A stretch of DNA of 11,914 bases from a virus. Taxonomy: Duplodnaviria > Heunggongvirae > Uroviricota > Caudoviricetes. The position numbers and the translations under genes were made by a program. Every line of letters starts with the position of its first letter. Position 1 is the stretch's first letter. The DNA lies in the IMG/VR virus record IMGVR_UViG_2671180884_000016, positions 1-11,914 of that record; one strand, 5' to 3'. Below the pieces are notes generated by a model. It searched no databases. It had not been told where the DNA came from and worked only from the letters and a program-made list of their open reading frames with translations. Positions 1 to 11,914 of the stretch are shown here, one piece after another.

Positions 1-270
1 AGAGATAAAGCCCTGCCGGTGCATCACTTTCCAGATGGCGCGAATTTTGGCGGTCACCGTACCCGGTTTTAAGGCCCGGTTAACCGGTTTCTGACGCACT
101 TTAAAACCGCGTTTTTTGAAAACATCCAGCACGCGGGATAACTCACCGGGTGACATATCCCGGCAGCTGGTTTTGCCGGTGGCTGCCAGTAGTACGAATG
201 TGTAGGTCTCATCATCCAGGGCAAGCTCGCGCTTTGCCACATGAATAGCGGATATCAGTTTCCCTCTCAT
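1..270 (-). CDS. gemA: GemA-like (Mu gp16 / DUF1018-type) protein, N-terminal 90 aa only; C-terminus lies beyond window start
   Basis: Reverse-complement translation of 1-270 gives MRGKLISAIHVAKRELALDDETYTFVLLAATGKTSCRDMSPGELSRVLDVFKKRGFKVRQKPVN..., with the I-x-x-IH-x-AK-x-x-L-x-LDD-x-TY motif recalled for Mu GemA-family proteins. ATG at 268-270 overlaps the upstream gene's TGA (ATGA). Confidence 0.6.
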   Translation of the reverse strand, partial: MRGKLISAIHVAKRELALDDETYTFVLLAATGKTSCRDMSPGELSRVLDVFKKRGFKVRQKPVNRALKPGTVTAKIRAIWKVMHRQGFIS

Positions 271-563
271 GCTGTATCAACACTCCTGCTGATATGATAG
301 ATATTACTTTCCCGATCGAGCTGAACCCGATACTCCGGAGGAATCACAAAAATATTAAAACCATCATCAGTTTTTATTCTTGAGTAGTATTCCCCCTTAT
401 GATATCTGGCAAGTGCATTAATCAGAGAAGTCGCCGCCAGCCCAATCAGGTATTTTTTATGAAAAATACTGATAACTTTCCGGCACAGCCATCGTGTAAT
501 GACGAATGCACCGAAAAACGATGTGATATATAAACACCAGAACAACTGCGAACTACTGTCCAT
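267..563 (-). CDS. hypothetical protein, 98 aa, N-terminal transmembrane helix
   Basis: ORF with strong SD (AAGGAG, 7 nt before ATG at 563). Hydrophobic segment LFWCLYITSFFGAFVITRWL. Stop overlaps the gemA-like start. Confidence 0.55.
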   Translation of the reverse strand: MDSSSQLFWCLYITSFFGAFVITRWLCRKVISIFHKKYLIGLAATSLINALARYHKGEYYSRIKTDDGFNIFVIPPEYRVQLDRESNIYHISRSVDTA

Positions 564-750
564 TATCTTTCTCCTTATTCAGTCTTCTGCGACATTCGGC
601 ACAGTCATCAGGGCTTTCAAATGTATCCGGCTCGCGATTATGAGCCAGATATAACCACCGCCTACATATACTGATATTATCGCCAGTTTTAAAAAAATGA
701 TGCTTCTTAGCCATCAGAGGGCGCGCCCATCCAGCGGGTAGACTATTCAT
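553..750 (-). CDS. hypothetical small protein, 65 aa, Cys-containing (C-x19-C-x2-C), possible zinc-binding
   Basis: ORF with SD GGAGGA 8 nt upstream of ATG at 750; overlaps neighbours by 8 and 11 nt, suggesting translational coupling. Confidence 0.45.
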   Translation of the reverse strand: MNSLPAGWARPLMAKKHHFFKTGDNISICRRWLYLAHNREPDTFESPDDCAECRRRLNKEKDNGQ

Positions 751-1117
751 TTGCTTTATCCTCCATACTGGACAAAATCATCTGTATTAATGTCGGGCGT
801 GGAGATATACGCATTTCATTAAGCGTCTGAAGGGCAGCAACGGCTGCCTGTTTATCGGTGCCTTTGGCAATTTCCGCAAGAGAATGCACAATCCATAACG
901 GACTTAACGCCACGACTGAATCCAGAATCATGTCATCCATAATAATTTCTGACACATCCCGCTTATCACATTCCTTATCCATAAAAGAAACGATTTTTTC
1001 CACATCTTCCGGTTTCATGCCTCCGGCGATAAGAAATTTGCGATACTCATAAGACGATCTTAATTCAATACTCATATTCATCTCCTGTAACTCTGACAAG
1101 GACGTGATTTTTCTCAT
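743..1117 (-). CDS. hypothetical protein, 124 aa
   Basis: ORF in the co-oriented early operon; ATG at 1115-1117 overlaps the stop of the upstream gene (ATGA). Confidence 0.5.
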   Translation of the reverse strand: MRKITSLSELQEMNMSIELRSSYEYRKFLIAGGMKPEDVEKIVSFMDKECDKRDVSEIIMDDMILDSVVALSPLWIVHSLAEIAKGTDKQAAVAALQTLNEMRISPRPTLIQMILSSMEDKANE

Positions 1118-1299
1118 TTATGTTTTCCAGTAATACGGATATATATGTCGATAAGAAGATTCATAATAAACAGGAAGAGCGACATCCTGATAAAGAACCA
1201 AATATCTGGCATCATGGACAGGTTTCCTGTAATCGCAAATATAAAACCAACCCCCAACACCGGAACGAAAATTGCGAAAAATACAAGTCTCTTTATCAT
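1114..1299 (-). CDS. small hydrophobic membrane protein, 61 aa, two predicted TM helices
   Basis: Sequence MIKRLVFFAIFVPVLGVGFIFAITG...WFFIRMSLFLFIMNLLIDIYI is dominated by two hydrophobic stretches; ATGA overlap with upstream gene at 1296-1299. Confidence 0.5.
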   Translation of the reverse strand: MIKRLVFFAIFVPVLGVGFIFAITGNLSMMPDIWFFIRMSLFLFIMNLLIDIYIRITGKHK

Positions 1300-1847
1300 G
1301 GCGTTAACTCCCGTAATACAGCGTCCTCGGCAGTCCGGCGATGGTGATAAATAAAATTCACCGTACTCTCGGATAATTCAAATTTCTCGCCTATTTCCCG
1401 GAAGGTAAGACGTCGTGGTGATTCAGCATCCCGTAATTCACGAATAAGATGAACATCATCGTCAGGTATACGGGTGAAGGGCAGCAATTCTCCGTATTTT
1501 TTCATGCTTACGCCAATATATCGCGCCCGATTGTGGACAGAATCCCGGTCTCGCCCCAGATATTCTCCTATTTGCTTACCGGTCATCGTTCTGGCATTTT
1601 TTCGGATAAATTTATCTTCATCATGTTTAAATCTTGGACGTTTGCATTTGAGCAACTCCGGGTAAGTACCGCGTAATAAAACAATCCGGTTATGTACACC
1701 CCAGAAACTTCTTTTTACCCTGACAGCAATATCCTTAACCGGGGTGGATGGATAAAGCGCAATCAGCAGCGCATCTTCTTCAGGTGTCCACGCACGGACA
1801 TGAGCAGGTGCCTGACCTTTTCGCCCCATGGGTTGTAAAATCATCAT
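1296..1847 (-). CDS. putative DNA-binding protein, 183 aa, with three helix-turn-helix-like segments
   Basis: SD AGGGGG 7 nt upstream of ATG at 1847. Segments WTPEEDALLIALY (Myb/SANT-like), TGKQIGEYLGRDRDSVHNRARYIG and LTFREIGEKFELSESTVNFIYHH (sigma-70 region 4 / LuxR-like) read as HTH motifs by eye. Confidence 0.55.
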   Translation of the reverse strand: MMILQPMGRKGQAPAHVRAWTPEEDALLIALYPSTPVKDIAVRVKRSFWGVHNRIVLLRGTYPELLKCKRPRFKHDEDKFIRKNARTMTGKQIGEYLGRDRDSVHNRARYIGVSMKKYGELLPFTRIPDDDVHLIRELRDAESPRRLTFREIGEKFELSESTVNFIYHHRRTAEDAVLRELTP

Positions 1848-1850
1848 ACA

Positions 1851-2366
1851 TCACCCCCTGACTCGCTTTTCAGCAGCATAAAACTCATCAGACAGAATTT
1901 CGGTCATTTTCTGATTTGCGGGTTTTACGCCGCACTCAAGGTAAATCACATCGTCAACGCAGAACCACTTCACAGGGCCAAACATGATTGCCGAGAAATC
2001 AATACCCAGCCAGAACAACAGTGCATCGGTTCTGGCATACGTGACGGGCGAATATTCACGCCACAGACTGTTAAGTTCGTCAGAGGCAACGCGCAGGGCT
2101 TTGGGAATACGTGATGTGCGCGGTGTGCAGCTCCAGCCATTCGACGCAGTCGGTTTTCGCCATAAGTCGCGATGAAAAGGATATTTGTCATCCATAAAGC
2201 GCAGCCCTTTAAAACAAAAGCCACTGATACCGGATACAAATACCGACCGGCACGCAACATTCAGCACGGCCTCAAGGCGTTTTGCCTCATCCTTAACTTT
2301 CTGGCAGTCCTGCTGATATTTTTGCCACGCGGCCAGCGCGGAAGGGTTTGATGTTTTAAAGAACAT
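1851..2366 (-). CDS. hypothetical protein, 171 aa
   Basis: ORF with SD GGAGGTG upstream of ATG at 2364-2366; TAATG stop/start overlap with upstream gene. Confidence 0.55.
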   Translation of the reverse strand: MFFKTSNPSALAAWQKYQQDCQKVKDEAKRLEAVLNVACRSVFVSGISGFCFKGLRFMDDKYPFHRDLWRKPTASNGWSCTPRTSRIPKALRVASDELNSLWREYSPVTYARTDALLFWLGIDFSAIMFGPVKWFCVDDVIYLECGVKPANQKMTEILSDEFYAAEKRVRG

Positions 2367-2899
2367 TACGCCACCTCCGCAGATATCCCGGCAGGCGCGG
2401 CCGTCCGGTCAACAATCAGGTAACGCAGAACGCGCGAGGTGATATTCCAGCCGCTTAAACCGCAGATAATGACACCCAGGCGTATGTCGATATACGCCAT
2501 CACAAACTGGGGCACGCCTTCTTTCATGGCCTGCTCATCAACTTCAGCCACCACATAAACGGTTTCACAGGTCAGAACGCCCTGAGCAAATTCCCACGCC
2601 ATTGACGGAATATCATGCCCCTCAATCCACGGCAGGGATTTTCTGAAGCTGCACCACTGAACATCATCAGCCGCACCTTCCTGGCTGCATTTGCGACGAA
2701 CCGGCTGCACCGGGCGGGGACGCGGAATATCATAAAAACCGTTACATTCCGTCAGCACCCCGGCATCGACCGCATCACGCAGAAAATAAACCATCGAGGA
2801 TGGCGGCATATTCATTTTTTCAGCCAGAATGCCGCAGGTCAGACGCCCGTAAATACTCAGCCAGTTTTTAACCCCTTCAAGCACTTTTGCATCAATCAT
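2366..2899 (-). CDS. hypothetical protein, 177 aa (possible N-terminal winged-helix-like region)
   Basis: ORF with SD GGAGGA 8 nt upstream of ATG at 2899; no family recognised from sequence alone. Confidence 0.55.
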   Translation of the reverse strand: MIDAKVLEGVKNWLSIYGRLTCGILAEKMNMPPSSMVYFLRDAVDAGVLTECNGFYDIPRPRPVQPVRRKCSQEGAADDVQWCSFRKSLPWIEGHDIPSMAWEFAQGVLTCETVYVVAEVDEQAMKEGVPQFVMAYIDIRLGVIICGLSGWNITSRVLRYLIVDRTAAPAGISAEVA

Positions 2900-2902
2900 G
2901 AA

Positions 2903-3445
2903 TTATTCCTCCGTCAGCGCCACATATTCAGAATGTTTAATCTCCTGGCATTCTTCAGGAATACCCCCTTTTATTTCCCTGCCATAAGCGCCTACTTTAA
3001 ACACCACGCACAGGGCATCACGGGAGAGCGACGGGGTCCACCAGGAGTCCATGTTAAACATGGAGGGGATTCTCATTACCCCCAGCTTTTCACAGAGCCA
3101 GACAAGGAAATCAGGACGCTTTCTTAACTCGCGTTCAGCGGCTTCAATCATTGCGGCAATCGCCGGTCCTTCAGGGCATGACTCATCAGGTCTGGCAATA
3201 AAGCACGGTCCGTCCCCGATAAAAGCCACATCATCGCGCTTACGCCAGCCCGCAGGCAGAGCACCAGAAAAATAAAACTCACTGATTACGTCCATGGCAA
3301 ACGGCTTTAAGCGCAATCCGGCAGCGCCTGTATTTTTCAGTAATGCCCGAAGAATACTGTTGCGTAGCGGTAAAACAGTCTGTTGATATTTGGTGAAATA
3401 TTTATTTGTCTGCACACGGTCTAATTTGAAATAAAAATATGCCAT
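2903..3445 (-). CDS. hypothetical protein, 180 aa
   Basis: ORF with SD AAGGA upstream of ATG at 3445; first gene downstream of gam in the operon. Confidence 0.55.
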   Translation of the reverse strand: MAYFYFKLDRVQTNKYFTKYQQTVLPLRNSILRALLKNTGAAGLRLKPFAMDVISEFYFSGALPAGWRKRDDVAFIGDGPCFIARPDESCPEGPAIAAMIEAAERELRKRPDFLVWLCEKLGVMRIPSMFNMDSWWTPSLSRDALCVVFKVGAYGREIKGGIPEECQEIKHSEYVALTEE

Positions 3446-3542
3446 ATATCCTGTTCCTTATTTTCAGTTTACAGGCGCAGGCAGTCCCCTGACGCGAGCG
3501 CCATACTTAAAACGATGTGATATTTAAAGATTTAATGCGGTG

Positions 3543-4073
3543 TTATTTATTCAGTCCGGCGTCCTGTTCAAAAGGCTCGACATAAAAACTTTCAGCGCCT
3601 TTATTCACCTTAATACCGGCAATGCCTTTCACTGCATCCGGCTCCGCCAGGACCGCTTCCTTGTTCACTTCCTCTTTCGTGCGGATGAATCGCTCAAGCC
3701 CCATACGGCGCAGCATTTCAATCACACCTTCCACATCACGGCTGACGCTGCATGATGGATTTCCCAGCCGCCATGACACTGTTCCGGTGGTCAGATTGGC
3801 TGTTTTGGTTTTGCCGCCGTTCGTCAGCTCATCGCGGTTGGTTTTGCACCAGTCCTGAATCCCCTTAAAAAGCACTTTGATTTCTTTTTTAAGGTTTTCA
3901 ATCTGCGGCGTATAACGGGCGGTGATTTCTGCCACTTCATCATTCATCGCCGTTTCCAGCCGCAGCGCCTCTCGCTGAATATCGCCCAGGGTACGGATAT
4001 CGCGGCTGACTTCTTCGCGGGTCTGCGGTGCAGCCTCGGCTGCGGCCTTTAATTTTGTAACACGTTTAGCCAT
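3543..4073 (-). CDS. gam: host-nuclease inhibitor protein Gam (Mu Gam / Ku-like DNA end-binding protein)
   Basis: 176 aa. Resembles the Mu Gam sequence as recalled: N-terminal MAK...LETAMNDEVAEI, central DELTNGGKTKTANLTTGTVSWR, C-terminal RFIRTKEEVNKEAVLAEPDAVKGIAGIKV...EPFEQ. Position in the early operon is appropriate. Confidence 0.8.
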   Translation of the reverse strand: MAKRVTKLKAAAEAAPQTREEVSRDIRTLGDIQREALRLETAMNDEVAEITARYTPQIENLKKEIKVLFKGIQDWCKTNRDELTNGGKTKTANLTTGTVSWRLGNPSCSVSRDVEGVIEMLRRMGLERFIRTKEEVNKEAVLAEPDAVKGIAGIKVNKGAESFYVEPFEQDAGLNK

Positions 4074-4084
4074 TTTGTTTTTCC

Positions 4085-4378
4085 TTATTGCAGTGTGCCT
4101 GATGCTTTATGCACGCGGTGGCGTTTAATGATGGCATCCGCCCCAAAAGCCTGTACAGATGCCTGAAATTCCGCTGAGAGAAACTGAATAATTTCAGGAC
4201 TGTGATACTGGAGAATACTTGCATAAACGTCACAGAGTGACGTCGGCCTGTTATTCGTATCACGTTCTGTTTTTACATCCACACCAATCTTTTCATGCAC
4301 TTCAACACAGTCATTGCCTGCCGGTTTTTCGTCATGCGAAACATGCTTAAATTCAAAAATAACGCGTACTTTGCTCAT
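4085..4378 (-). CDS. hypothetical small protein, about 97 aa; paralogue of the 4383-4655 gene (ORF track extends to 4405, internal start preferred)
   Basis: ATG at 4376-4378 is preceded by SD AGGGG and lies just after the upstream stop. N-terminus MSKVRVIFEFKHV matches MSKVVRIIFEYKEHV of the neighbour. Confidence 0.5.
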   Translation of the reverse strand: MSKVRVIFEFKHVSHDEKPAGNDCVEVHEKIGVDVKTERDTNNRPTSLCDVYASILQYHSPEIIQFLSAEFQASVQAFGADAIIKRHRVHKASGTLQ

Positions 4379-4382
4379 GGAA

Positions 4383-4655
4383 TTACCCCTGCTGATTAAA
4401 TTCATTACCTTTAATAACCCCGGAACGCATGCTCATATCTTTCATGAGCGCACTGGCTTTCATTGCCACAAGTTCAGCAAAGTCTCTGCTTTCCGCGAGC
4501 ATAACCACCCCAAAAATCATGGCGGGTCCATCACCTTTCTGCTTTATCCCGGTTGAACGTATGTCCAGACTTACCCCCATGCGCACTGTTCCATCAGCGT
4601 TTTTATGGATAACGTGCTCCTTGTATTCGAAAATAATGCGTACGACTTTACTCAT
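4383..4655 (-). CDS. hypothetical small protein, 90 aa; paralogue of the 4085-4378 gene
   Basis: ORF with SD-like GAGGACCAGAGG before ATG at 4655; ATGA overlap with upstream gene. Nucleotide similarity around both starts (aaaataaYgcgtac...ctcat). Confidence 0.5.
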   Translation of the reverse strand: MSKVVRIIFEYKEHVIHKNADGTVRMGVSLDIRSTGIKQKGDGPAMIFGVVMLAESRDFAELVAMKASALMKDMSMRSGVIKGNEFNQQG

Positions 4656-4933
4656 CCTCTGGTCCTCGTTCTGTTTGGATAACTGACCCGGCGTCTGACC
4701 TCACGGCAGAACCGAATCATGGCATTAAAGGCTTCTTCCTCCGTCACCGCTTCCGGTATCCCCGGAACCAGTAACTGCTCCTGTTCATCACGTCCATGAC
4801 GCGCCATAACCTCAATCACATGCCGTACCGTGGCAGGCTTTCCGGCAACTATCGGCAATGCACCTTCCGGCAGGACGTAACCAAACTCAATAAGACCACT
4901 CGACCACGCCCATGCAATGAGATTTTTTTTCAC
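4652..4933 (-). CDS. hypothetical protein, 93 aa, GTG start
   Basis: GTG at 4931-4933 is preceded by strong SD GGGAGGTG; no in-frame ATG nearby. Confidence 0.45.
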   Translation of the reverse strand: MKKNLIAWAWSSGLIEFGYVLPEGALPIVAGKPATVRHVIEVMARHGRDEQEQLLVPGIPEAVTEEEAFNAMIRFCREVRRRVSYPNRTRTRG

Positions 4934-4934
4934 C

Positions 4935-5189
4935 TCACACCTCCCAGTAAACCGTGCAGCCGCTGATGCGGGTGGCCTTCACACGGCGGCGCAGGCCGTT
5001 GGTCTGTATGGTGATTTCAATTTCACCGGTTCCCTGCACGTTGCCTACCGGCGGCGTGGTTTTCAGTGCAAAACGTTGCGGATAGCGCTTACTGCGTTCC
5101 AGTACCGCACCGGCAAGTTCGGTCAGACGGCGCGCGCTGTTCAGGGAGTCGAATAAATTCATTTTGTTACCGCAGGATTGCATATTCAT
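4935..5189 (-). CDS. hypothetical protein, about 84 aa (ORF track 4935-5201; internal ATG at 5189 preferred)
   Basis: The first ATG of the ORF itself forms SD GAGGTG for the ATG at 5187-5189. Confidence 0.4.
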   Translation of the reverse strand: MNMQSCGNKMNLFDSLNSARRLTELAGAVLERSKRYPQRFALKTTPPVGNVQGTGEIEITIQTNGLRRRVKATRISGCTVYWEV

Positions 5190-5201
5190 ATAACACCTCA
5201 T

Positions 5202-5423
5202 TTAGCTGACTTGTTTCGCACCAACAGAACGGCATATTCCGCTGTAAACGTCTGTCGCACCTTCGCGATCAAGTCCGGCAGATATCACCATTCGTGTGCG
5301 GTCATTAAATTCAAAAAGTAAATCGCCACATTCTTTATTTTCGGCCAGTGAAATCACCTTCACGTTATCGAAATTAACCAGGTAAAAGCGTCCGTAAATA
5401 TCAGGAATATTAAATACCGCCAT
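5202..5423 (-). CDS. hypothetical small protein, about 73 aa, immediately downstream of B (position of kil in Mu)
   Basis: ATG at 5421-5423 preceded by SD AGGTG; the ORF track's start at 5429 is a GTG two codons upstream. Follows B stop (TGA 5426-5428) after 2 nt. Confidence 0.45.
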   Translation of the reverse strand: MAVFNIPDIYGRFYLVNFDNVKVISLAENKECGDLLFEFNDRTRMVISAGLDREGATDVYSGICRSVGAKQVS

Positions 5424-5425
5424 AA

Positions 5426-6358
5426 TCACACCTGTGAGAGTAATTCAGGGTTGGTATAAACCTCTTTAAAGGCCGCATTAATATGTTTTTCTGTCAGCGC
5501 CGCGCCTTCACCGCTGGCGGTGAGCCACGCCTGGTTAAGCGTATGTGTCAGAACGCGTAACGCTCCCGGCTTTTCAGCGATAGCCTGCATGACGGCCAGC
5601 TCGGCCTCACCACTGATCCCCCACGCCCTGGCAATGGCCAGCACATCCGCCTTTTTGGCCTTGCGAAGTTGTTTTGTACGGGCAAGACGGCTGAACAGGC
5701 GCGATAAATCATCAAAGGCGCGGCGTCCACCTTTAAACAATCCGCGCGGGTTACCAATAAGCACCATCCCGATCCCCGTGGCGTCCTGAATTGCCCGGAG
5801 TTGCTCCAGACCGTCAATACCAAGATGATCCGCCTCATCCACAATCACCAGTCCACGCGTTCCCATCAGGCGACGGCGGATGGCGCGGGATAATGCCCCT
5901 TTGTTCGCGCGGGTGTAATCAATCCCCAGCGCATCGGCCAGCTCCAGCAGACACTCCGTGACGCTGGAGTGCGCGGGTGACAGGGTGATCATCCAGGTGT
6001 TTGGTTGCTCCTGGCAGTAATTACGGGCAGTGGCCGTTTTACCCACACCCGGTACGCCCACAATAACGTTAATACAGCCCATCAGACGAACCGCCTGAAA
6101 CAGTGCGCGCAGCTCCTGGACTGTCTGCGTTTCCACAAACTGCGGCGGTTCCGGCAGTGCGCTTTGTTTATTCCAGTTCTCATACCAGGAACGCAGGGAA
6201 GCAGCCACAGCAGCGTTATCGCCTTTATATTTTCCCTTACGGAAAGCCGATAATGTGCCGTCGGAAATTCCCGCCTCTCTGGCGATGGCATACTGCGTCA
6301 GTACGCCGCCATCAATAAGTTCATCAATGGTCTTGATTACATCGTTAATATCAGTCAT
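5426..6358 (-). CDS. B: Mu B-like DNA transposition protein (AAA+ ATPase target-DNA activator)
   Basis: 310 aa. N-terminal HTH-like region, Walker A GVPGVGKT, Walker B-like LVIVDEADHL; directly downstream of the transposase as in Mu. SD GAGAGG upstream. Confidence 0.85.
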   Translation of the reverse strand: MTDINDVIKTIDELIDGGVLTQYAIAREAGISDGTLSAFRKGKYKGDNAAVAASLRSWYENWNKQSALPEPPQFVETQTVQELRALFQAVRLMGCINVIVGVPGVGKTATARNYCQEQPNTWMITLSPAHSSVTECLLELADALGIDYTRANKGALSRAIRRRLMGTRGLVIVDEADHLGIDGLEQLRAIQDATGIGMVLIGNPRGLFKGGRRAFDDLSRLFSRLARTKQLRKAKKADVLAIARAWGISGEAELAVMQAIAEKPGALRVLTHTLNQAWLTASGEGAALTEKHINAAFKEVYTNPELLSQV

Positions 6359-6396
6359 ATTATTAACCTCTCATTTGATACCTTGTTTAATCAAAT

Positions 6397-6430
6397 AACC
6401 TGAGTCGCCGCTCGGGTTATTTTTTTATTT
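6397..6430 (+). terminator. hairpin plus T-tract in the A-B intergenic spacer, best formed on the plus (antisense) strand
   Basis: aacctgag / ctcgggtt stem (8 bp, one G-U) with 6-nt loop, followed by atttttttattt on the plus strand. Confidence 0.3.
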
Positions 6431-8538
6431 CAGGCCAGCGGGTCATTTTCTTTTAATTTCGCTTCCAGCAACTGCAATCCCCGCTGGAAATTACGCTCGT
6501 ATTCTTCATCAGGTTCATCGTCAGCGACCGGTTGCTGAACGGTCACCGTATTACCCACAGGGCGGTATATGTTTTCCAGCCAGGGCTCCTGCGGCTTGTG
6601 CTCCAGCACGTTGACAACCTCATCCTCGGCATCACGGATTTTTTCCTCTGCGCGTTTACGCATGCCTTTAAGGCGTTGCTGCTGTTTGTAGTATTCCGCG
6701 CTAACCGGGAAGGCTTCGCGTTTATTACCGTCCCATACCGCCTCGCAAATCACGCTGCCATCCAGGCGACGTACGGTAATTCGTTCGGCATCATGAATGT
6801 CATAGCTGATAAGCACCTTACGACCATGCTCGTCACGCAGCTCGGGCGCGTAGTAAATATTATTCAGCCAGCGTATTTCACAGCGTCTTACAGGGCGTTC
6901 CACCATCGGCCGGAACATATCCCGCAGCTCAACATCGGACAGCCATTCAATTTCCGTGTCCTCTTCCGCCAGGCGTTTTTTTCTGAACTCCGCCGGGCTG
7001 TAATGCTTGCCGTTCGGCTTCACCGGTAATTCATCGTGCGGCCGGTTGTTGTACCACTCAACACCGTCACGAATGGCATCAATCAGTTCAGACCAGGACG
7101 GTAAATCACGCATCGCTGACTGCTGCCGGGCGTTCAGCCGTTTGCCCTGTTGCAGGGCAGTAAATGCCGAGCGTAAATCGCGGTTGGTTTTGCGTAACGT
7201 CTCGCGATCTGCACCTTTCCCGAAATAGGTGCGGTATTTACGGGCTATGCGCATCGGTAATGTGCGGTTAAGCCGTTCGATAATGCCTCGTCCCTGCGGA
7301 TTACCGGCAATCCCGGTCGGGTGATTAATCCCCAGTCGCGGCAGTATCCCCACAACCTCCTTATCCAGGATGTCGGCGGTTTCCCCGGAGCCGTTATCCG
7401 AGTAATACAGAAACGGTTTGCCGTGATGGCGAATGCCGTGCTGTATGGCACCGGCTACGGCGAAAACATTTTCAGCCAGGTCAAGGCTCCAGCCCACCAC
7501 AAAGCGCGTGCCACCGTCGATAACAAAGGTCACTTCCGGTGCAAATGGCCGACCGTGAACCGGGTGTGCGCATTTCAGCTTCATGCCGTGACCGTCACCA
7601 ATCCAGACATAATTCACCGGCATTTTTGACCAGTCGCGGCGCGTGAATCCCTCAAGCTGGCGGTATTCACTGCCGGTCACCCGGCCTTTTTGTTTCACCA
7701 CTTCCGGCAGTTTCTTCATTGCGCGGCGAATGGTGTCATAAGACGGCATGATATCGAGCATATAAGGCTCATCAGCGTGCCGGTGCTGCCATTCAGCGAC
7801 AAAATCCTCGTAAGCCTCGGTCATTGGTCGGCCGTTTGACTGGCGATACTGCGCCAGAAATTCGGGCAGCCAGTTAATATCTTCGGCTTTTATTTCCTGG
7901 CGCTTACCCGGTGCCAGTAAAAGCAGGCGTTCAGCGGCGTTCTGCGCCTTGTTAAAGGCCGCAATCCAGCGTTTCAGCGTTATTTCACTCAACGCACGGC
8001 TGTTTCCCTTTTTGGCGTTCGCCGTCTCAACCATTGCCACAATGCGCTCGTCCAGTTGCGAACGTGCCAGGTTGTCAACGATAAACCGGATAGCTTTCGC
8101 GCAGCTGAAACCGGGTTGTTGCGCGACTTTCATCACTTCGCTGACGATCGCGATTCGTGCATCAGCCACCTGGCGCTGGTTTTCAGTCAGGGCATTGAGG
8201 CGTTCGACCATCAGTTGTGGTGATCCGCGATATGCCTCCACCGCATCAACCACGTCAGATGAGCGTCTGGCCTTTGTCACCACCGGAGCCGGTGATTCAT
8301 CGGCTTTTTGCGTCATCAGTTGCAGGGCATAGCGTTCGCGTACTGCCTGCTGAACAGTTAAAGGCAAAGCTCCTATTTCACACTCTAAAACTTTCCCTTT
8401 TACCCCTGGTTTTAGCCGCGTTTTCCACGCTTCCCTCTTTGCTTTTTTGTGCAGACCTGCCAAAGAACTAGGTAGGTCACTGAATGAAATCAATTCAGTC
8501 ATTGCAACCCACATATTTCCTCCGCGCACGTCGTTCAT
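6430..8538 (-). CDS. A: Mu A-like DDE transposase (N-terminal repressor-like DNA-binding domain, central rve-type catalytic core, C-terminal domain)
   Basis: 702 aa; size and position (after ner, before B) match MuA. N-terminal ...SDLPSSLAGLHKKAKREAWKTR... parallels the adjacent repressor. Start may be the internal ATG at 8514 (MWVAMTEL); either start overlaps the ner 3' end. Confidence 0.9.
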   Translation of the reverse strand: MNDVRGGNMWVAMTELISFSDLPSSLAGLHKKAKREAWKTRLKPGVKGKVLECEIGALPLTVQQAVRERYALQLMTQKADESPAPVVTKARRSSDVVDAVEAYRGSPQLMVERLNALTENQRQVADARIAIVSEVMKVAQQPGFSCAKAIRFIVDNLARSQLDERIVAMVETANAKKGNSRALSEITLKRWIAAFNKAQNAAERLLLLAPGKRQEIKAEDINWLPEFLAQYRQSNGRPMTEAYEDFVAEWQHRHADEPYMLDIMPSYDTIRRAMKKLPEVVKQKGRVTGSEYRQLEGFTRRDWSKMPVNYVWIGDGHGMKLKCAHPVHGRPFAPEVTFVIDGGTRFVVGWSLDLAENVFAVAGAIQHGIRHHGKPFLYYSDNGSGETADILDKEVVGILPRLGINHPTGIAGNPQGRGIIERLNRTLPMRIARKYRTYFGKGADRETLRKTNRDLRSAFTALQQGKRLNARQQSAMRDLPSWSELIDAIRDGVEWYNNRPHDELPVKPNGKHYSPAEFRKKRLAEEDTEIEWLSDVELRDMFRPMVERPVRRCEIRWLNNIYYAPELRDEHGRKVLISYDIHDAERITVRRLDGSVICEAVWDGNKREAFPVSAEYYKQQQRLKGMRKRAEEKIRDAEDEVVNVLEHKPQEPWLENIYRPVGNTVTVQQPVADDEPDEEYERNFQRGLQLLEAKLKENDPLA

Positions 8539-8740
8539 ATCTAGTAGGCCAAATAACCTGTGGCTCTACACCTATAGCCCTAGCAATTATCTTTTCACCT
8601 TTAGGGTAGGGAACTCGCAAAGCATTACCCAAAGTCCTAGGCTGCAAATTATTTTCCCTTGATAAACGTGACAAATTGGTATCGCGTTTTTCTAAGGCTG
8701 CCTTTATATCGGCGGAAGACCAATCTTCAATAAGACTCAC
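8495..8740 (-). CDS. ner: Ner-like DNA-binding transcriptional regulator (Mu Ner / Nlp family)
   Basis: 81 aa, (M)SLIEDWSSADIKAALEKRDTNLSRLSRENNLQPRTLGNALRVPYPKGEKIIARAIGVEPQVIWPTRY matches the conserved Ner/Nlp pattern (DWH.ADI...L...PKGE.IIA.A.G..P..IWPSRY). GTG start with SD AGGGGG 5 nt upstream. Confidence 0.8.
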   Translation of the reverse strand: MSLIEDWSSADIKAALEKRDTNLSRLSRENNLQPRTLGNALRVPYPKGEKIIARAIGVEPQVIWPTRYERRARRKYVGCND

Positions 8741-8824
8741 AATGGCCCCCTGTGTACTTTCTATGGCAAACTTTATTACTCATGTGTGCTACTCTATTGA
8801 GTTACTCACTAGTGTATGTTTGAT

Positions 8825-8853
8825 ATGTTAGATATTAACTTAGTAAATATCAA
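8825..8853 (-). promoter_or_regulatory. candidate early promoter for ner-A-B (minus strand: -35 TTGATA, 17-bp spacer, -10 TAACAT)
   Basis: Hexamers read by eye on the minus strand; about 85 nt upstream of the ner GTG. Confidence 0.25.
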
Positions 8854-8860
8854 CTGGTTA
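8848..8860. promoter_or_regulatory. IHF-like binding site within the operator region
   Basis: tatcaactggtta fits the IHF consensus WATCAANNNNTTR; Mu has an IHF site in its operator region. Confidence 0.35.
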
Positions 8861-8957
8861 ATTTCAAATTTTTAAATTTGCTCTGTATCTATTTGTTTTT
8901 TATTGAGTTATTTTTGAAATAAACCACATAAAAGATATGAACAAAAGTTAATATCAA

Positions 8958-9476
8958 ATGGAGTTTGATATGATCCTTGACCAAGAATGGATCCTTGCCA
9001 GTGACTTGTTGGGGGTTGGAGGTCTTCCTTCATCTCTGGCTGGGCTTCATAAACGAGCAAAAAATGAAGGATGGGAAAAACGTTCGGTAACTACACCTGG
9101 TATCAGAGGGAGAGCATTTGCCTACCGTTTAAGCGACTTACCTGCACATGTTGTTTCCATCATTACAGGTAGTGCAGAAATAAAACACCAGCCCCCTCAA
9201 AAGAACGGTGGCAATAGCGAGTTGCTCGAACTCATCGACACTTTGAGCCAAGAAGAGCAAGAATTAGTTATTTACACCTTGAGAAGGAAAGGGGTAGAAA
9301 AATTGCTGGAATTCTGCAATCAAGAGAATCAAGAGTTGATCGCTTTAACAGGTATTCGACGCCTGGCAGCATTGAGCCTTAATAATTTATCAGATCAAAA
9401 GGTTAGAGAGATTTTCGAGGGAGATGAAACCAAGGATCATCATTTCAATTTAACCCATAAAGAAGCCAAAGCGTAA
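8958..9476 (+). CDS. c: Mu c-type repressor (lysogeny maintenance); likely true start at ATG 8970
   Basis: 172 aa, divergent from ner. N-terminal ...GGLPSSLAGLHKRAKNEGWEKR... matches the transposase N-terminus, the known MuA/Mu-repressor relationship. GGAG SD 6 nt before the ATG at 8970. Confidence 0.75.
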   Translation: MEFDMILDQEWILASDLLGVGGLPSSLAGLHKRAKNEGWEKRSVTTPGIRGRAFAYRLSDLPAHVVSIITGSAEIKHQPPQKNGGNSELLELIDTLSQEEQELVIYTLRRKGVEKLLEFCNQENQELIALTGIRRLAALSLNNLSDQKVREIFEGDETKDHHFNLTHKEAKA

Positions 9477-9599
9477 CCCCATGAAGCCCAGGCCATGCAC
9501 TTAGCGAGCACTTTCAACTTGATTTGTGACCAGATCGATATTGATATAAACTTTTTAGCATAAAAGACATTTTAAGTACTTTTAAAAACGTCCATAAGC

Positions 9600-9775
9600 A
9601 GTATGTGCAGTATCAAATTTGTTGCCGATACCTTAATTTTATACCGGATTTTATTTAATCAGTATCAAAACTAAACAACCTCCAGAATCATCGATCACCT
9701 GTTTTATTTCAGTATCTTACAGGTGATTTCACCTCCTTTCACTAAAACCCTTGTCGGTATCAAATGATTTACCTG
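9600..9775. repeat. prophage left-end region with four GTATC(A/T)-containing repeats at about 50-bp spacing (candidate transposase end-binding sites, attL-like)
   Basis: cagtatcaaatttgttgccgatacc (about 9608), cagtatcaaaactaaacaacc (about 9660), cagtatcttacaggtgatttcacc (about 9710), cggtatcaaatgatttacc (about 9755); AT-rich, non-coding, between the c stop and the junction. Confidence 0.5.
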
Positions 9776-10022
9776 GTTACACTCTGCACTGCCGGGCGAT
9801 ATCCTGCTGTGCTGCTTCGGCGCATCGGTGGCTAATCATGCCGCCATTTACTGCGGCAACGGTGAACTGCTTCACCATCTGCCTGAACAACTGAGTAAAC
9901 GGGAGAGGTATTCCGAAAAATGGCAACGACGAACGCATTCTGTCTGGCGTCACCGCCACTGGCACGCATCTGCCTTCACGGGGATTTACAACGATTTGGC
10001 CGCCGCTTCAGCCTGTATGTGA
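9768..10022 (+). pseudogene. K: 5'-truncated remnant of lambdoid tail assembly protein K (C-terminal about 84 codons only)
   Basis: In-frame translation ...LHSALPGDILLCCFGASVANHAAIYCGNGELLHHLPEQLSKRERYSEKWQRRTHSVWRHRHWHASAFTGIYNDLAAAS matches the lambda K C-terminus as recalled. An in-frame stop at 9765-9767 lies immediately upstream, with no ATG and no N-terminal K coding sequence. Confidence 0.7.
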
Positions 10023-10600
10023 ACACGGCGGCGGAAGCCATCCGCGCCCTGTCGCTGCAGGTGCCGGGATTCCGCCGTCAGATGAACGAAGGCTGGTACC
10101 AGATACGCATTGCCGGTGAGGATACGGCACCGGAGGCGGTGTATGCCCGCCTTCACGAACCACTGGGTGAGGGAACGGTTATCCATATTGTGCCGCGACT
10201 GGCCGGAGCCGGAAAGGGCGGACTACAGATTGTGCTGGGGGCAGCTGCCATTGTGGGGTCTTTCTTCACGGCCGGAGCATCAATGGCGTTATGGGGTTCA
10301 GCCCTGGCAGCCGGTGGTTTTTCTGCCACCACGATGCTGTTTTCACTGGGTGCCAGCATGATACTGGGCGGTGTGGCCCAGATGCTGGCCCCGAAGGCAA
10401 AAACACCGGATTACCGCGCAACGGATAACGGCAGACAGAACACGTATTTTTCCTCACTGGACAACATGATTGCCCAGGGCAACCCGATGCCGGTGCCCTA
10501 CGGTGAAATGCTGGTTGGTTCACGACGTATCTCTCAGGACATCAGCACCCGTGATGAAGGCGGAGACGGAAAGGTGGTGGTTATTGGTCGACAGGGATAA
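9920..10600 (+). CDS. I: lambdoid tail assembly protein I
   Basis: 226 aa, MATTNAFCLASPPLARICLHGDLQRFGRR...GKQNTYFSSLDNM..., closely parallels lambda gpI; overlaps the K 3' end as in lambda-like tail modules. Confidence 0.9.
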   Translation: MATTNAFCLASPPLARICLHGDLQRFGRRFSLYVNTAAEAIRALSLQVPGFRRQMNEGWYQIRIAGEDTAPEAVYARLHEPLGEGTVIHIVPRLAGAGKGGLQIVLGAAAIVGSFFTAGASMALWGSALAAGGFSATTMLFSLGASMILGGVAQMLAPKAKTPDYRATDNGRQNTYFSSLDNMIAQGNPMPVPYGEMLVGSRRISQDISTRDEGGDGKVVVIGRQG

Positions 10601-10603
10601 AAC

Positions 10604-10639
10604 ATAAAAAAATCCCGCAGTGATCGCGGAGCTGCGGGG
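10604..10639 (-). terminator. rho-independent terminator-like hairpin, minus-strand orientation, just downstream of the I stop
   Basis: Stem tcccgcag / ctgcggga (8 bp) with 11-nt loop; on the minus strand the stem is followed by TTTTTTTAT (plus-strand A-run 10606-10612). Confidence 0.4.
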
Positions 10640-10812
10640 ACAGACAAATGAAGATTAATGTTAAGGAGTTGTTTTTGTTACTCGGGCAAAAAAACACTAA
10701 CGCAGCGAAATTATAAGCGCCACAGTCAGTGTGTGAAAATGTGAAGATATTCAGAATTTTTATGCCATTACCGGTTTTAACCAACAGGATTATCGGTGGG
10801 CATGAAAGAAAA

Positions 10813-10845
10813 CCCCGGTATCTGCTGATACCGGGGTTTCTGTTT
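10813..10845. terminator. bidirectional rho-independent terminator-like hairpin in the I-J spacer
   Basis: Perfect 10-bp stem ccccggtatc / gataccgggg with 4-nt loop, flanked by gaaagaaaa upstream and tttctgttt downstream (T-rich on both strands). Confidence 0.5.
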
Positions 10846-10942
10846 AGCATGGCAGAAATGTGTTTCATGCTTTTCGGGCGAAGGATATCCGACTTCTGTA
10901 CGGAATGGCAAGTGGCGGTTAATTTATTCAGGGGAAGGCTGT

Positions 10943-11914
10943 ATGGGAAAAGGTGGCGGTAAGGCACACACGCCTCGTGAGGCGAAGGATAATCTCAAAT
11001 CCACGCAGATGATGAGCGTGATTGATGCGATTGGTGAGGGACCCATTGAAGGTCCGGTGAAAGGCCTGCAGAGTATTCTGGTGAACAAAACCCCGCTGAC
11101 GGACACGGACGGTAATCCCGTGATACACGGTGTGACCGCGGTCTGGCGCGCCGGGGAGCAGGAGCAGACACCACCGGAAGGCTTTGAGTCCTCCGGAGCT
11201 GAAACTGTACTGGGTGTGGAAGTGACGAAGGCAAAACCGGTGACACGCACCATTACGTCAGCGAACATTGACCGCCTGCGGGTGACCTTCGGGGTGCAGT
11301 CACTGGTGGAGACCACGTCAAAGGGTGACCGTAATCCGTCCTCTGTCCGTCTGCTGATTCAGTTACAGCGTAACGGTAACTGGGTGACAGAAAAGGATGT
11401 CACCATTAACGGCAAGACCACCTCACAGTTCCTGGCCTCGGTGATTCTGGATAATCTGCCTCCCCGCCCCTTTAACATCCGGATGGTCAGGGAGACGGCG
11501 GACAGCACCACGGACCAGCTGCAGAACAGAACGCTGTGGTCGTCATACACCGAAATCATCGATGTGAAACAGTGCTACCCGAACACGGCCATTGTGGGGA
11601 TGCAGGTGGATGCGGAGCAGTTTGGTGGTCAGCAGATGACGGTGAACTACCATATCCGCGGTCGCATCATCCAGGTGCCGTCAAACTATGACCCGGAAAA
11701 ACGCACGTACAGTGGTATCTGGGACGGCAGTCTGAAACCGGCATACAGCAACAACCCGGCCTGGTGCCTGTGGGACATGCTGACTCACCCGCGCTACGGG
11801 ATGGGAAAACGCCTGGGGGCGGCGGATGTGGACAAGTGGGCGCTGTATGCCATCGGGCAGTACTGCGACCAGACGGTCCCGGATGGATTCGGGGGCACAG
11901 AGCCGCGGATGACC
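10943..11914 (+). CDS. J: lambdoid host specificity / central tail fibre protein J, N-terminal 324 aa; continues beyond window end
   Basis: Translation MGKGGGKAHTPREAKDNLKSTQMMSVIDAIGEGPIEGPVKGLQSILVNKTPL...PPRPFNIRM...LWSSYTEIIDVKQCYPNTAIVG...SNNPAWCLWDMLTHPRYGMGKRLGAADVDKWALY... is near-collinear with lambda gpJ; SD GGGGAAGG upstream; open to the window edge. Confidence 0.95.
   Translation, partial: MGKGGGKAHTPREAKDNLKSTQMMSVIDAIGEGPIEGPVKGLQSILVNKTPLTDTDGNPVIHGVTAVWRAGEQEQTPPEGFESSGAETVLGVEVTKAKPVTRTITSANIDRLRVTFGVQSLVETTSKGDRNPSSVRLLIQLQRNGNWVTEKDVTINGKTTSQFLASVILDNLPPRPFNIRMVRETADSTTDQLQNRTLWSSYTEIIDVKQCYPNTAIVGMQVDAEQFGGQQMTVNYHIRGRIIQVPSNYDPEKRTYSGIWDGSLKPAYSNNPAWCLWDMLTHPRYGMGKRLGAADVDKWALYAIGQYCDQTVPDGFGGTEPRMT

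Follow-up and report, generated by a model that had tools for sequence, protein, structure and literature searches.

Three consecutive genes downstream of gam were analysed in a stretch of DNA of 11,914 nucleotides (nt), called here the window (positions 1 to 11,914 of IMG/VR virus record IMGVR_UViG_2671180884_000016), which holds the early (left) end of a Mu-like prophage of Escherichia coli lying on the minus strand. The genes, named P1, P2 and P3 in order of translation, encode proteins of 180, 177 and 171 amino acids (aa), and are the local form of the gam-downstream part of the semi-essential (SE) early region of phage Mu: P2 is a homologue of Mu gp11, P3 is a homologue of Mu gp12, and P1, judging from its sequence relationships, is a divergent offshoot of the DUF5420 superfamily which falls below Pfam's membership threshold. 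These identities and homologies were assigned with near certainty. A previous reading of this DNA made from its letters (the sequence-only reading) had correctly recorded the three open reading frames (ORFs) with their coordinates, the 3-nt gap, the TAATG overlap and the presence of Shine-Dalgarno sequences, and had correctly located the block in the Mu-type SE early region downstream of gam. Its view that the proteins had no recognisable family was mistaken, since P2 corresponds to gp11 (PF25754), P3 to gp12 (relatives labelled PF26885) and P1 to a relative of DUF5420; its remark that Mu carries much smaller genes at this place was wrong for two of the three, Mup11 and Mup12 being 176 aa each, directly after gam and with a one-base overlap. 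The first reading is therefore corrected to homologues of gp11 and gp12 instead of family-less cargo. gp11, gp12 and DUF5420 were already known kinds of genes; what is new here is the superfamily link between DUF5420 and gp12, a confident fold prediction for P1, and a small exchange hotspot. The features of the block were the following:

2903..3445, minus strand: P1, 180 aa, divergent DUF5420 superfamily member by sequence, exchangeable cassette in the gam-gp11 slot
2366..2899, minus strand: P2, 177 aa, Mu gp11 homologue (PHROG 1949, E 2e-105)
2729..2899, minus strand: N-terminal winged-helix domain of P2, about aa 1-57 (predicted structure)
2399..2632, minus strand: C-terminal Gp11_C domain of P2, aa 90-167, beta-rich, preceded by a variable linker at aa 58-88 (Pfam PF25754, E 7.9e-40)
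1851..2366, minus strand: P3, 171 aa, Mu gp12 homologue (PHROG 2314, E 1e-85)

Families of the three proteins

P2 matched the complete Pfam profile PF25754, “Phage Mu Gp11 C-terminal domain” (135.5 bits, cut-off 27, E 7.9e-40, profile positions 1-78 of 78, aa 90-167), and was 67% identical to Mup11 over residues 1-177. Mu gp11 (Mup11, NP_050615; PF25754) is a full-length homologue of P2 (176 vs. 177 aa) with a like domain layout and, as in P2, its gene comes after gam and overlaps the gp12 gene by one base (in Mu, gam 5801-6325, gp11 6424-6954 and gp12 6954-7484). A 98-nt spacer separates gam and gp11 in Mu, whereas the P1 gene occupies this place in the phage of the window. D108 gp11 and SfMu gp12 were further gp11-family counterparts of P2. 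The identity of gp11 from Mu to this phage was 61-70%, none of the enterobacterial Mu-type loci examined lacked gp11, the order gam, gp11, gp12 was kept in all related loci, and gp11 homologues were detected at the DNA level in 318 of 5426 complete E. coli genomes. The predicted model of P2 consisted of a three-helix domain (residues 1-50), a disordered Pro/Arg-rich linker, variable in the sequence alignment (residues 52-88), and a region of strands with short helices (residues 90-167; pLDDT mostly 78-89 in 10-residue blocks, below 50 at 107-111). In this model the N-terminal three-helix bundle, with a recognition helix, superposed on known winged helices; the best fold matches were Lrp/AsnC, MarR and ArsR regulators, with Z-alpha domains, SelB and APC2 scoring equally. 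Membership of P2 in winged-helix families was not found at the sequence level, the sole helix-turn-helix (HTH) match in Pfam having an E value of 0.24.

P3 was 55% identical to Mup12 over residues 1-168, and 62 columns of the P3/gp12 alignment were invariant. The relatives of P3 bear the precomputed Pfam label PF26885; a Pfam search with P3 and Mu gp12 gave no match in a copy of Pfam that did not hold the PF26885 model. Mu gp12 (Mup12, NP_050616; precomputed PF26885) has 176 aa vs. 171 aa for P3, with the same position and coupling, and is followed by gp13 and gp14 in Mu, whereas P3 is followed by a 183-aa HTH gene. The gp12 family was also found without gp11, in B3-like transposable phages of Klebsiella and Pseudomonas and in non-transposable phages of Klebsiella (Lastavirus), Vibrio and Acinetobacter. 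On viral contigs of about 50 kb, these non-Mu genes were recurrently preceded by a LexA/CI-type repressor and followed by RecT/RecE-like exonuclease genes, or by Bet in the case of Acinetobacter phage TCUAN1. These neighbours suggest an early-operon gene travelling with DNA-end and recombination functions, as it does beside gam here. An unannotated and apparently truncated gp12 homologue, a 122-aa ORF, was observed in SfMu (NC_027382, 7602-7970; HMM E 2e-54; tblastn 54% identity over residues 21-168), a phage in which Mu gp12 had been described as being without a homologue (PMC4406740).

For P1, no counterpart was found in Mu or D108 and no Pfam match at E<=1, the threshold of 26 bits for DUF5420 (PF17457) not being reached; two of its relatives, P0004 and P0014 (71% and 38% identical to P1), scored 15.6 and 15.0 bits on the DUF5420 model against this cut-off of 26. 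For P1, identity was nevertheless 40% with SfMu gp11 (YP_009152197), which is annotated as a “DUF5420 family protein”, and 37-39% with genes found in some Mu-like phages of Yersinia. The 95%-identical prophage of strain SCU-106 carried a bona fide DUF5420 protein in the P1 slot (WP_044810022, E 1.3e-13 on the Pfam model), which aligned with P1 from end to end (BLASTP E 4e-9, 23% identity). Identities between P1 and true DUF5420 members ranged from 23 to 40%. The P1-family profile retrieved 27 relatives from 1.84 billion representative proteins, and of the 26 sequences aligned for the P1 family, 18 matched Pfam DUF5420 (best E 9e-28). DUF5420 proteins share with P1 their length (about 180-190 aa), the gam-gp11 slot and several motifs: N-terminal YFK, PD..EG, P.F..W and C-terminal IKHSE[YF][VI]A[LI]TEE.

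P1 and P3 showed common features (N-terminal [YF][FY]K, an LG...F..W segment and a C-terminal EI..[SD]E[FY] helix), and their relationship was assessed by hhalign. The first, thin alignments gave a probability of 0.25% (E 0.24); with more distant members added it was 25% (E 8e-4); and with redundancy-filtered, diverse sets from viral contigs it was 92.2% (E 6e-7) over 158 collinear columns (8-188 vs. 2-162). Controls with reversed profiles and with the gp11 profile gave at most 0.2% (E 0.37-0.64). At the sequence-profile level, P1 and P3 are thus established as remote paralogues in one DUF5420/gp12 superfamily, which joins DUF5420 and gp12/PF26885, both of unknown function. The SfMu authors referred to SfMu ORF11 and Mu gp12 as “unique” proteins of the same region (PMC4406740), as would be expected if the two are paralogues.

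The structure prediction and structural search that the sequence-only reading had proposed for each protein were run for P1 and P2, returning the winged helix of P2 described above and, for P1, matches in BFVD to uncharacterised phage proteins only. The AlphaFold2 model of P1 was very confident (pLDDT 93.7, pTM 0.85), with the predicted element order beta, alpha, alpha, four strands, alpha, alpha, three strands, alpha; the members of the P1 and P3 superfamily would be compact alpha/beta proteins. Foldseek of this model against BFVD gave five significant matches, the best three being proteins of 178-196 aa (TM-score 0.65-0.70). The fold predicted for P1 is without a relative among solved structures, and sequence and profile searches of the PDB with all three proteins and their families gave nothing related. 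A candidate PD-(D/E)xK nuclease motif in P1 (P86-D87 ... E168-I-K170) was rejected: its spacing is wrong, and the aligned positions of gp12 are PR and EIL.

Coding status and transcription of the block

The P1-P2 junction reads ...GGAGGAATAA ttc ATG, with a 3-nt gap and GGAGGA as the Shine-Dalgarno sequence; the P2-P3 junction reads ...GGAGGTGGCGTAATG, with a TAATG overlap of 1 nt; and P3 is joined to the 183-aa HTH gene by TGA tgt ATG. These distances were kept in related loci, the P1-P2 gap being 3 nt in 106 of 112 and the P2-P3 overlap 1 nt in 139 of 145. All three proteins matched PHROG families from end to end (P1, E 1e-74; P2, E 2e-105; P3, E 1e-85), their full-length conservation spanned phages of E. 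coli, Salmonella, Shigella and Yersinia, and the exact proteins were present on 1000 or more contigs. The dN/dS ratios, calculated by the Nei-Gojobori method from four E. coli prophage alleles, were 0.28-0.38 for P1, 0.10-0.33 for P2 and 0.15-0.46 for P3, with 0.00-0.18 for gam. P1, P2 and P3 are true coding sequences under purifying selection. That they are instead decaying or spurious ORFs without function, as might be argued from the annotation of all three as “hypothetical protein” and from the deletion of P1 in some relatives, is extremely improbable: non-functionality is excluded by the conservation data, namely dN/dS values of 0.10-0.46, full-length conservation among the phages just named, kept coupling distances and abundance of the exact proteins on contigs, to which the confident fold predicted for P1 can be added. 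The sequence-only reading had named a lack of conservation as coding sequence as a finding that would speak against it, and the opposite was observed.

No promoter-like site was found on the coding strand between 1200 and 4200, and the search for terminators within the block gave one weak match, inside the P2 coding sequence, with counts at the level of shuffled sequences. Lacking an internal promoter-like site and a convincing terminator, the genes are therefore part of a long early operon as read from the sequence, and the block would be transcribed within it and translated as a coupled chain. The three proteins were soluble, without membrane segments, and had pI values of 7.6 (P1), 5.1 (P2) and 9.0 (P3).

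Two further observations concerned the borders of P1. P1 and P2 share a reading frame and are parted only by TAA TTC (window 2899-2905), and the exact P1 and P2 sequences sit in a single 90%-identity cluster of the protein database, which could come from a fused or read-through entry or be an artefact of the clustering; a P1-P2 fusion as Rosetta-stone evidence was discarded, as no fused ORF was present among the fetched loci. The gam-P1 spacer (3446-3542) was conserved at the DNA level among this phage, strain SCU-106 and Mu, the flanking proteins being just 57-68% identical. A structured RNA in this spacer was unsupported (fold z -0.2 vs. shuffles, no Rfam match).

Slot variation and genomic setting

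Loci were fetched from IMG/VR and scanned with the family HMMs, keeping gp11 loci with sufficient flanks; some contigs were fetched twice and the counts are approximate. P1, gp11 and gp12 were present together in 50 loci, gp11 and gp12 (the Mu arrangement) in 23, P1 and gp11 in 15, gp11 alone in 14, and two tandem P1-type genes followed by gp11 and gp12 in one. In this last locus (L040, 4001-5130), the tandem genes were divergent members of the P1 family encoding 182 and 201 aa. Among the loci with the backbone closest to the window (gam at least 93%, gp11 at least 92% and gp12 at least 90% identical), the P1 slot had three states: 19 distinct loci carried the allele of the window type, 8 carried a DUF5420 allele of 24-26% identity, and in 6-7 the slot was empty. 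The boundaries of exchange were located at the gene ends: on one side the conserved spacer between gam and P1, on the other the final 20 nt or so of P1, which encode ...TEE-stop and form the ribosome-binding site of gp11. A near-identical prophage without P1 (L061, 2856-3000 vs. window 2900-3445) retained a 14-codon remnant, MKYVYIVINNVVGK, with the start-codon context of the P1 family and an unchanged arrangement of stop and Shine-Dalgarno sequence ahead of gp11; in its sequence this looks like an internal deletion preserving translational coupling to gp11.

From these comparisons P1, and to a lesser extent gp12, is truly variable, with gp11 as the constant element, and an accessory, dispensable status of P1 and P3 can be held with good confidence. 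The proposal of variable cargo made by the sequence-only reading stood for P1 and P3, which vary among related prophages, and failed for P2, which is constant. The notion that gp11 always needs at least one DUF5420/gp12 paralogue was ruled out by the 14 loci with gp11 alone. The P1 allele was found in 220 of the 5426 complete E. coli genomes, and the gam-gp11 slot constitutes a small allele-exchange hotspot in prophages of about 4-6% of complete E. coli genomes, many Shiga-toxin-producing strains among them. Its three natural states in otherwise near-identical prophages provide a concrete and cheap experimental handle.

A 2.9-kb stretch of this region had a 100% identical copy in E. coli strain 2018-166. 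Of the 5426 complete E. coli genomes, 233 contained it at 90% identity or more, and many of these 233 were O157:H7 or other Shiga-toxin producers; the stretch was 96% identical to an “inserted Mu-like phage” annotated within two Stx-converting phages. The other features of the window were:

3543..4073, minus strand: gam, Mu Gam-type DNA-end-binding protein/host-nuclease inhibitor, directly upstream of P1 (Pfam Phage_Mu_Gam E 1.5e-41; PHROG 491 E 3.5e-70)
3446..3542, minus strand: gam-P1 intergenic leader, containing a GGCGC...GCGCC hairpin and the Shine-Dalgarno sequence of P1
1296..1847, minus strand: 183-aa HTH protein, next coupled gene after P3 (PHROG 323 “transcriptional regulator, D5-like”, E 6e-59; weak HTH Pfam matches)
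8958-9476, plus strand: repressor with Mu DNA-binding domain
8495-8740: ner, early Mu-like region
6430-8538: transposase A, early Mu-like region
5426-6358: B, early Mu-like region
between B and gam: several small early genes

The 183-aa HTH gene, which Mu does not have at the position after gp12, carried varying RefSeq labels (AsnC, DNA-binding, SANT/Myb-like). Compared with strain JKHS016, its dS was 0.56-0.72 and its dN about 0.17, vs. a dS of 0.07-0.25 for the neighbouring genes; by these values it would be another mosaic segment, far more divergent among otherwise similar prophages. A homologue of GemA (Mu gp16; phmmer E 8e-20 to Mu GemA) was cut by the left edge of the window on the minus strand (1-270), and the SE region therefore extends past the window. 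At the other side, the Mu-like prophage ended at about 9781, where the minus strand begins 5'-TGTAACCAGG. From 9782/9783 on, the DNA was that of a lambdoid prophage, with a C-terminal remnant of tail gene K (NlpC/P60, 9828-10022) followed by tail assembly gene I (9920-10600); from this adjacency, the Mu-like phage was inserted into, and disrupted, gene K of another prophage. The records LC727881 and LC727895 likewise carry annotations of Mu-like phages within Stx-converting phages.

Possible functions and relation to known systems

Pfam, NCBIfam and PADLOC gave no functional annotation for the block proteins beyond Gp11_C, and nothing relevant was found in the literature on Mu gp11, Mu gp12, DUF5420, PF25754 or PF26885. 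The SE region of Mu comprises 14 ORFs, mostly without assigned function, and when it was deleted, the recovery of lysogens and the viability of the host were restored upon infection by replication-defective MuBam (PMC3325207). The region is known to be harmful to the host (PMC3325207). Most of its ORFs have had no assigned function for decades.

The best explanation as a whole is a gam-downstream semi-essential module, made up of gp11 and the dispensable P1 and P3, which would act on host or phage DNA transactions; we hold it tentatively, as its chances of being right come close to even without quite reaching it. gp11 would bind nucleic acid via its predicted winged helix, and P1 and P3 would be small non-enzymatic binding proteins, because no catalytic motif is conserved across the superfamily and the PD...EIK pattern of P1 is not kept in gp12. 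Made early in lytic growth beside Gam, the three proteins may modulate host or phage DNA transactions, and their most likely role would be the neutralising or redirecting of a variable host factor (host takeover or counter-defence), in which case P1 would be an exchangeable specificity cassette. The host-takeover or anti-defence function suggested by the sequence-only reading is plausible and compatible with the data; a relationship to Mu early proteins with a known housekeeping role, which would have spoken against it, was not found, gp11 and gp12 being without defined function. A specific role in counter-defence or host takeover was ranked first among the readings because the swapping of alleles while the backbone stays conserved, and a constraint on P1 that is somewhat relaxed, fit variable host factors, and it is a possibility to be taken seriously, more doubtful than the module itself. 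A bolder version is unlikely: that the DUF5420/gp12 superfamily is an unrecognised and structurally new class of early phage proteins disarming a variable host nuclease or defence system, with the hypervariable slot as counter-defence cassette and gp11 as the winged-helix partner placing these proteins on phage DNA. If true, the disarmed host system would act on incoming or replicating phage DNA.

Several points weigh against host takeover or counter-defence. In the searches made here, no homology tied the block proteins to a host target or defence system; a PADLOC search of the block proteins gave no match, PADLOC being a collection of defence and not of anti-defence proteins; and none of the three has the strong acidity of a DNA mimic (pI 7.6, 5.1 and 9.0). 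The conservation and constancy of gp11, seen in sequence comparisons, fit a phage-internal role better than an arms race. The swaps of P1 alleles without a matching change in gp11 argue against a tight allele-specific P1-gp11 complex, and the 14 loci with gp11 alone indicate that gp11 has no strict need of either paralogue. The model of P2 was of moderate confidence (mean pLDDT 65), and the common fold of P1 and P3 is suggested by profile comparison, P1 being the one of the two that was modelled.

The strongest competitor is that the block proteins are phage-internal helpers of transposition, replication or immunity. To our knowledge, arm (amplified replication of Mu) and cim (control of immunity) have been assigned to no ORF, and gp11, together with gp12 and the DUF5420 paralogue, could correspond to one of these, acting on Mu DNA or the transpososome instead of on host defences. 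Both phenotypes are listed for the 4.3-10 kb region of Mu (PMC4553209). gp11 is constant, well conserved (61-70% identity from Mu to this phage) and has a predicted DNA-binding winged helix, and the adjacency to gam, together with the non-Mu relatives near RecT/RecE or Bet, points to DNA metabolism. Against this, near-identical prophages differ freely in P1 and gp12, by loss, by duplication or by exchange for alleles of 24-26% identity, which would be unusual for proteins working on a conserved phage machine, and relatives of gp12 occur in non-transposable phages; taken together, a phage-internal function is rather unlikely, if less so than the bolder version above. A transcription-regulation module, in which gp11 would be a winged-helix factor that adjusts host genes or the early or middle genes of the phage, with P1 and P3 as co- or anti-regulators, is more improbable still. 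The best fold matches of P2 are regulators, the next coupled gene also encodes an HTH protein, and the known regulators GemA and Mor lie further downstream in the same operon; however, the winged helix is a generic nucleic-acid-binding fold (Z-alpha, SelB and APC2 score as well), the C-terminal domain of P2 is unlike the ligand-binding or RAM domains of those regulators, operator-like repeats were not noticed, though no search was aimed at them, and the Mu early-to-middle switch is already explained by Mor.

With respect to known systems, the closest likeness of the block is to Mu itself, from which it differs by the P1 gene in the gam-gp11 spacer and the HTH gene after gp12. The winged-helix regulators (Lrp/AsnC, MarR, ArsR, Z-alpha) resemble the N-terminal domain predicted for P2, whereas their effector domains are unrelated to its C-terminal domain. 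Classical morons have their own promoter and terminator; the block genes showed neither in the sequence scan, and P1, P2 and P3 are not classical morons because they have no promoter of their own. The accessory genes of the lambda PL operon (ral, sieB, kil, cIII and the ea genes) are, from general knowledge of lambda, small, dispensable and variable genes of an early operon, near recombination and Gam functions. As a likeness of position and not of homology, the gp12-family genes outside Mu sit in exactly this kind of place.

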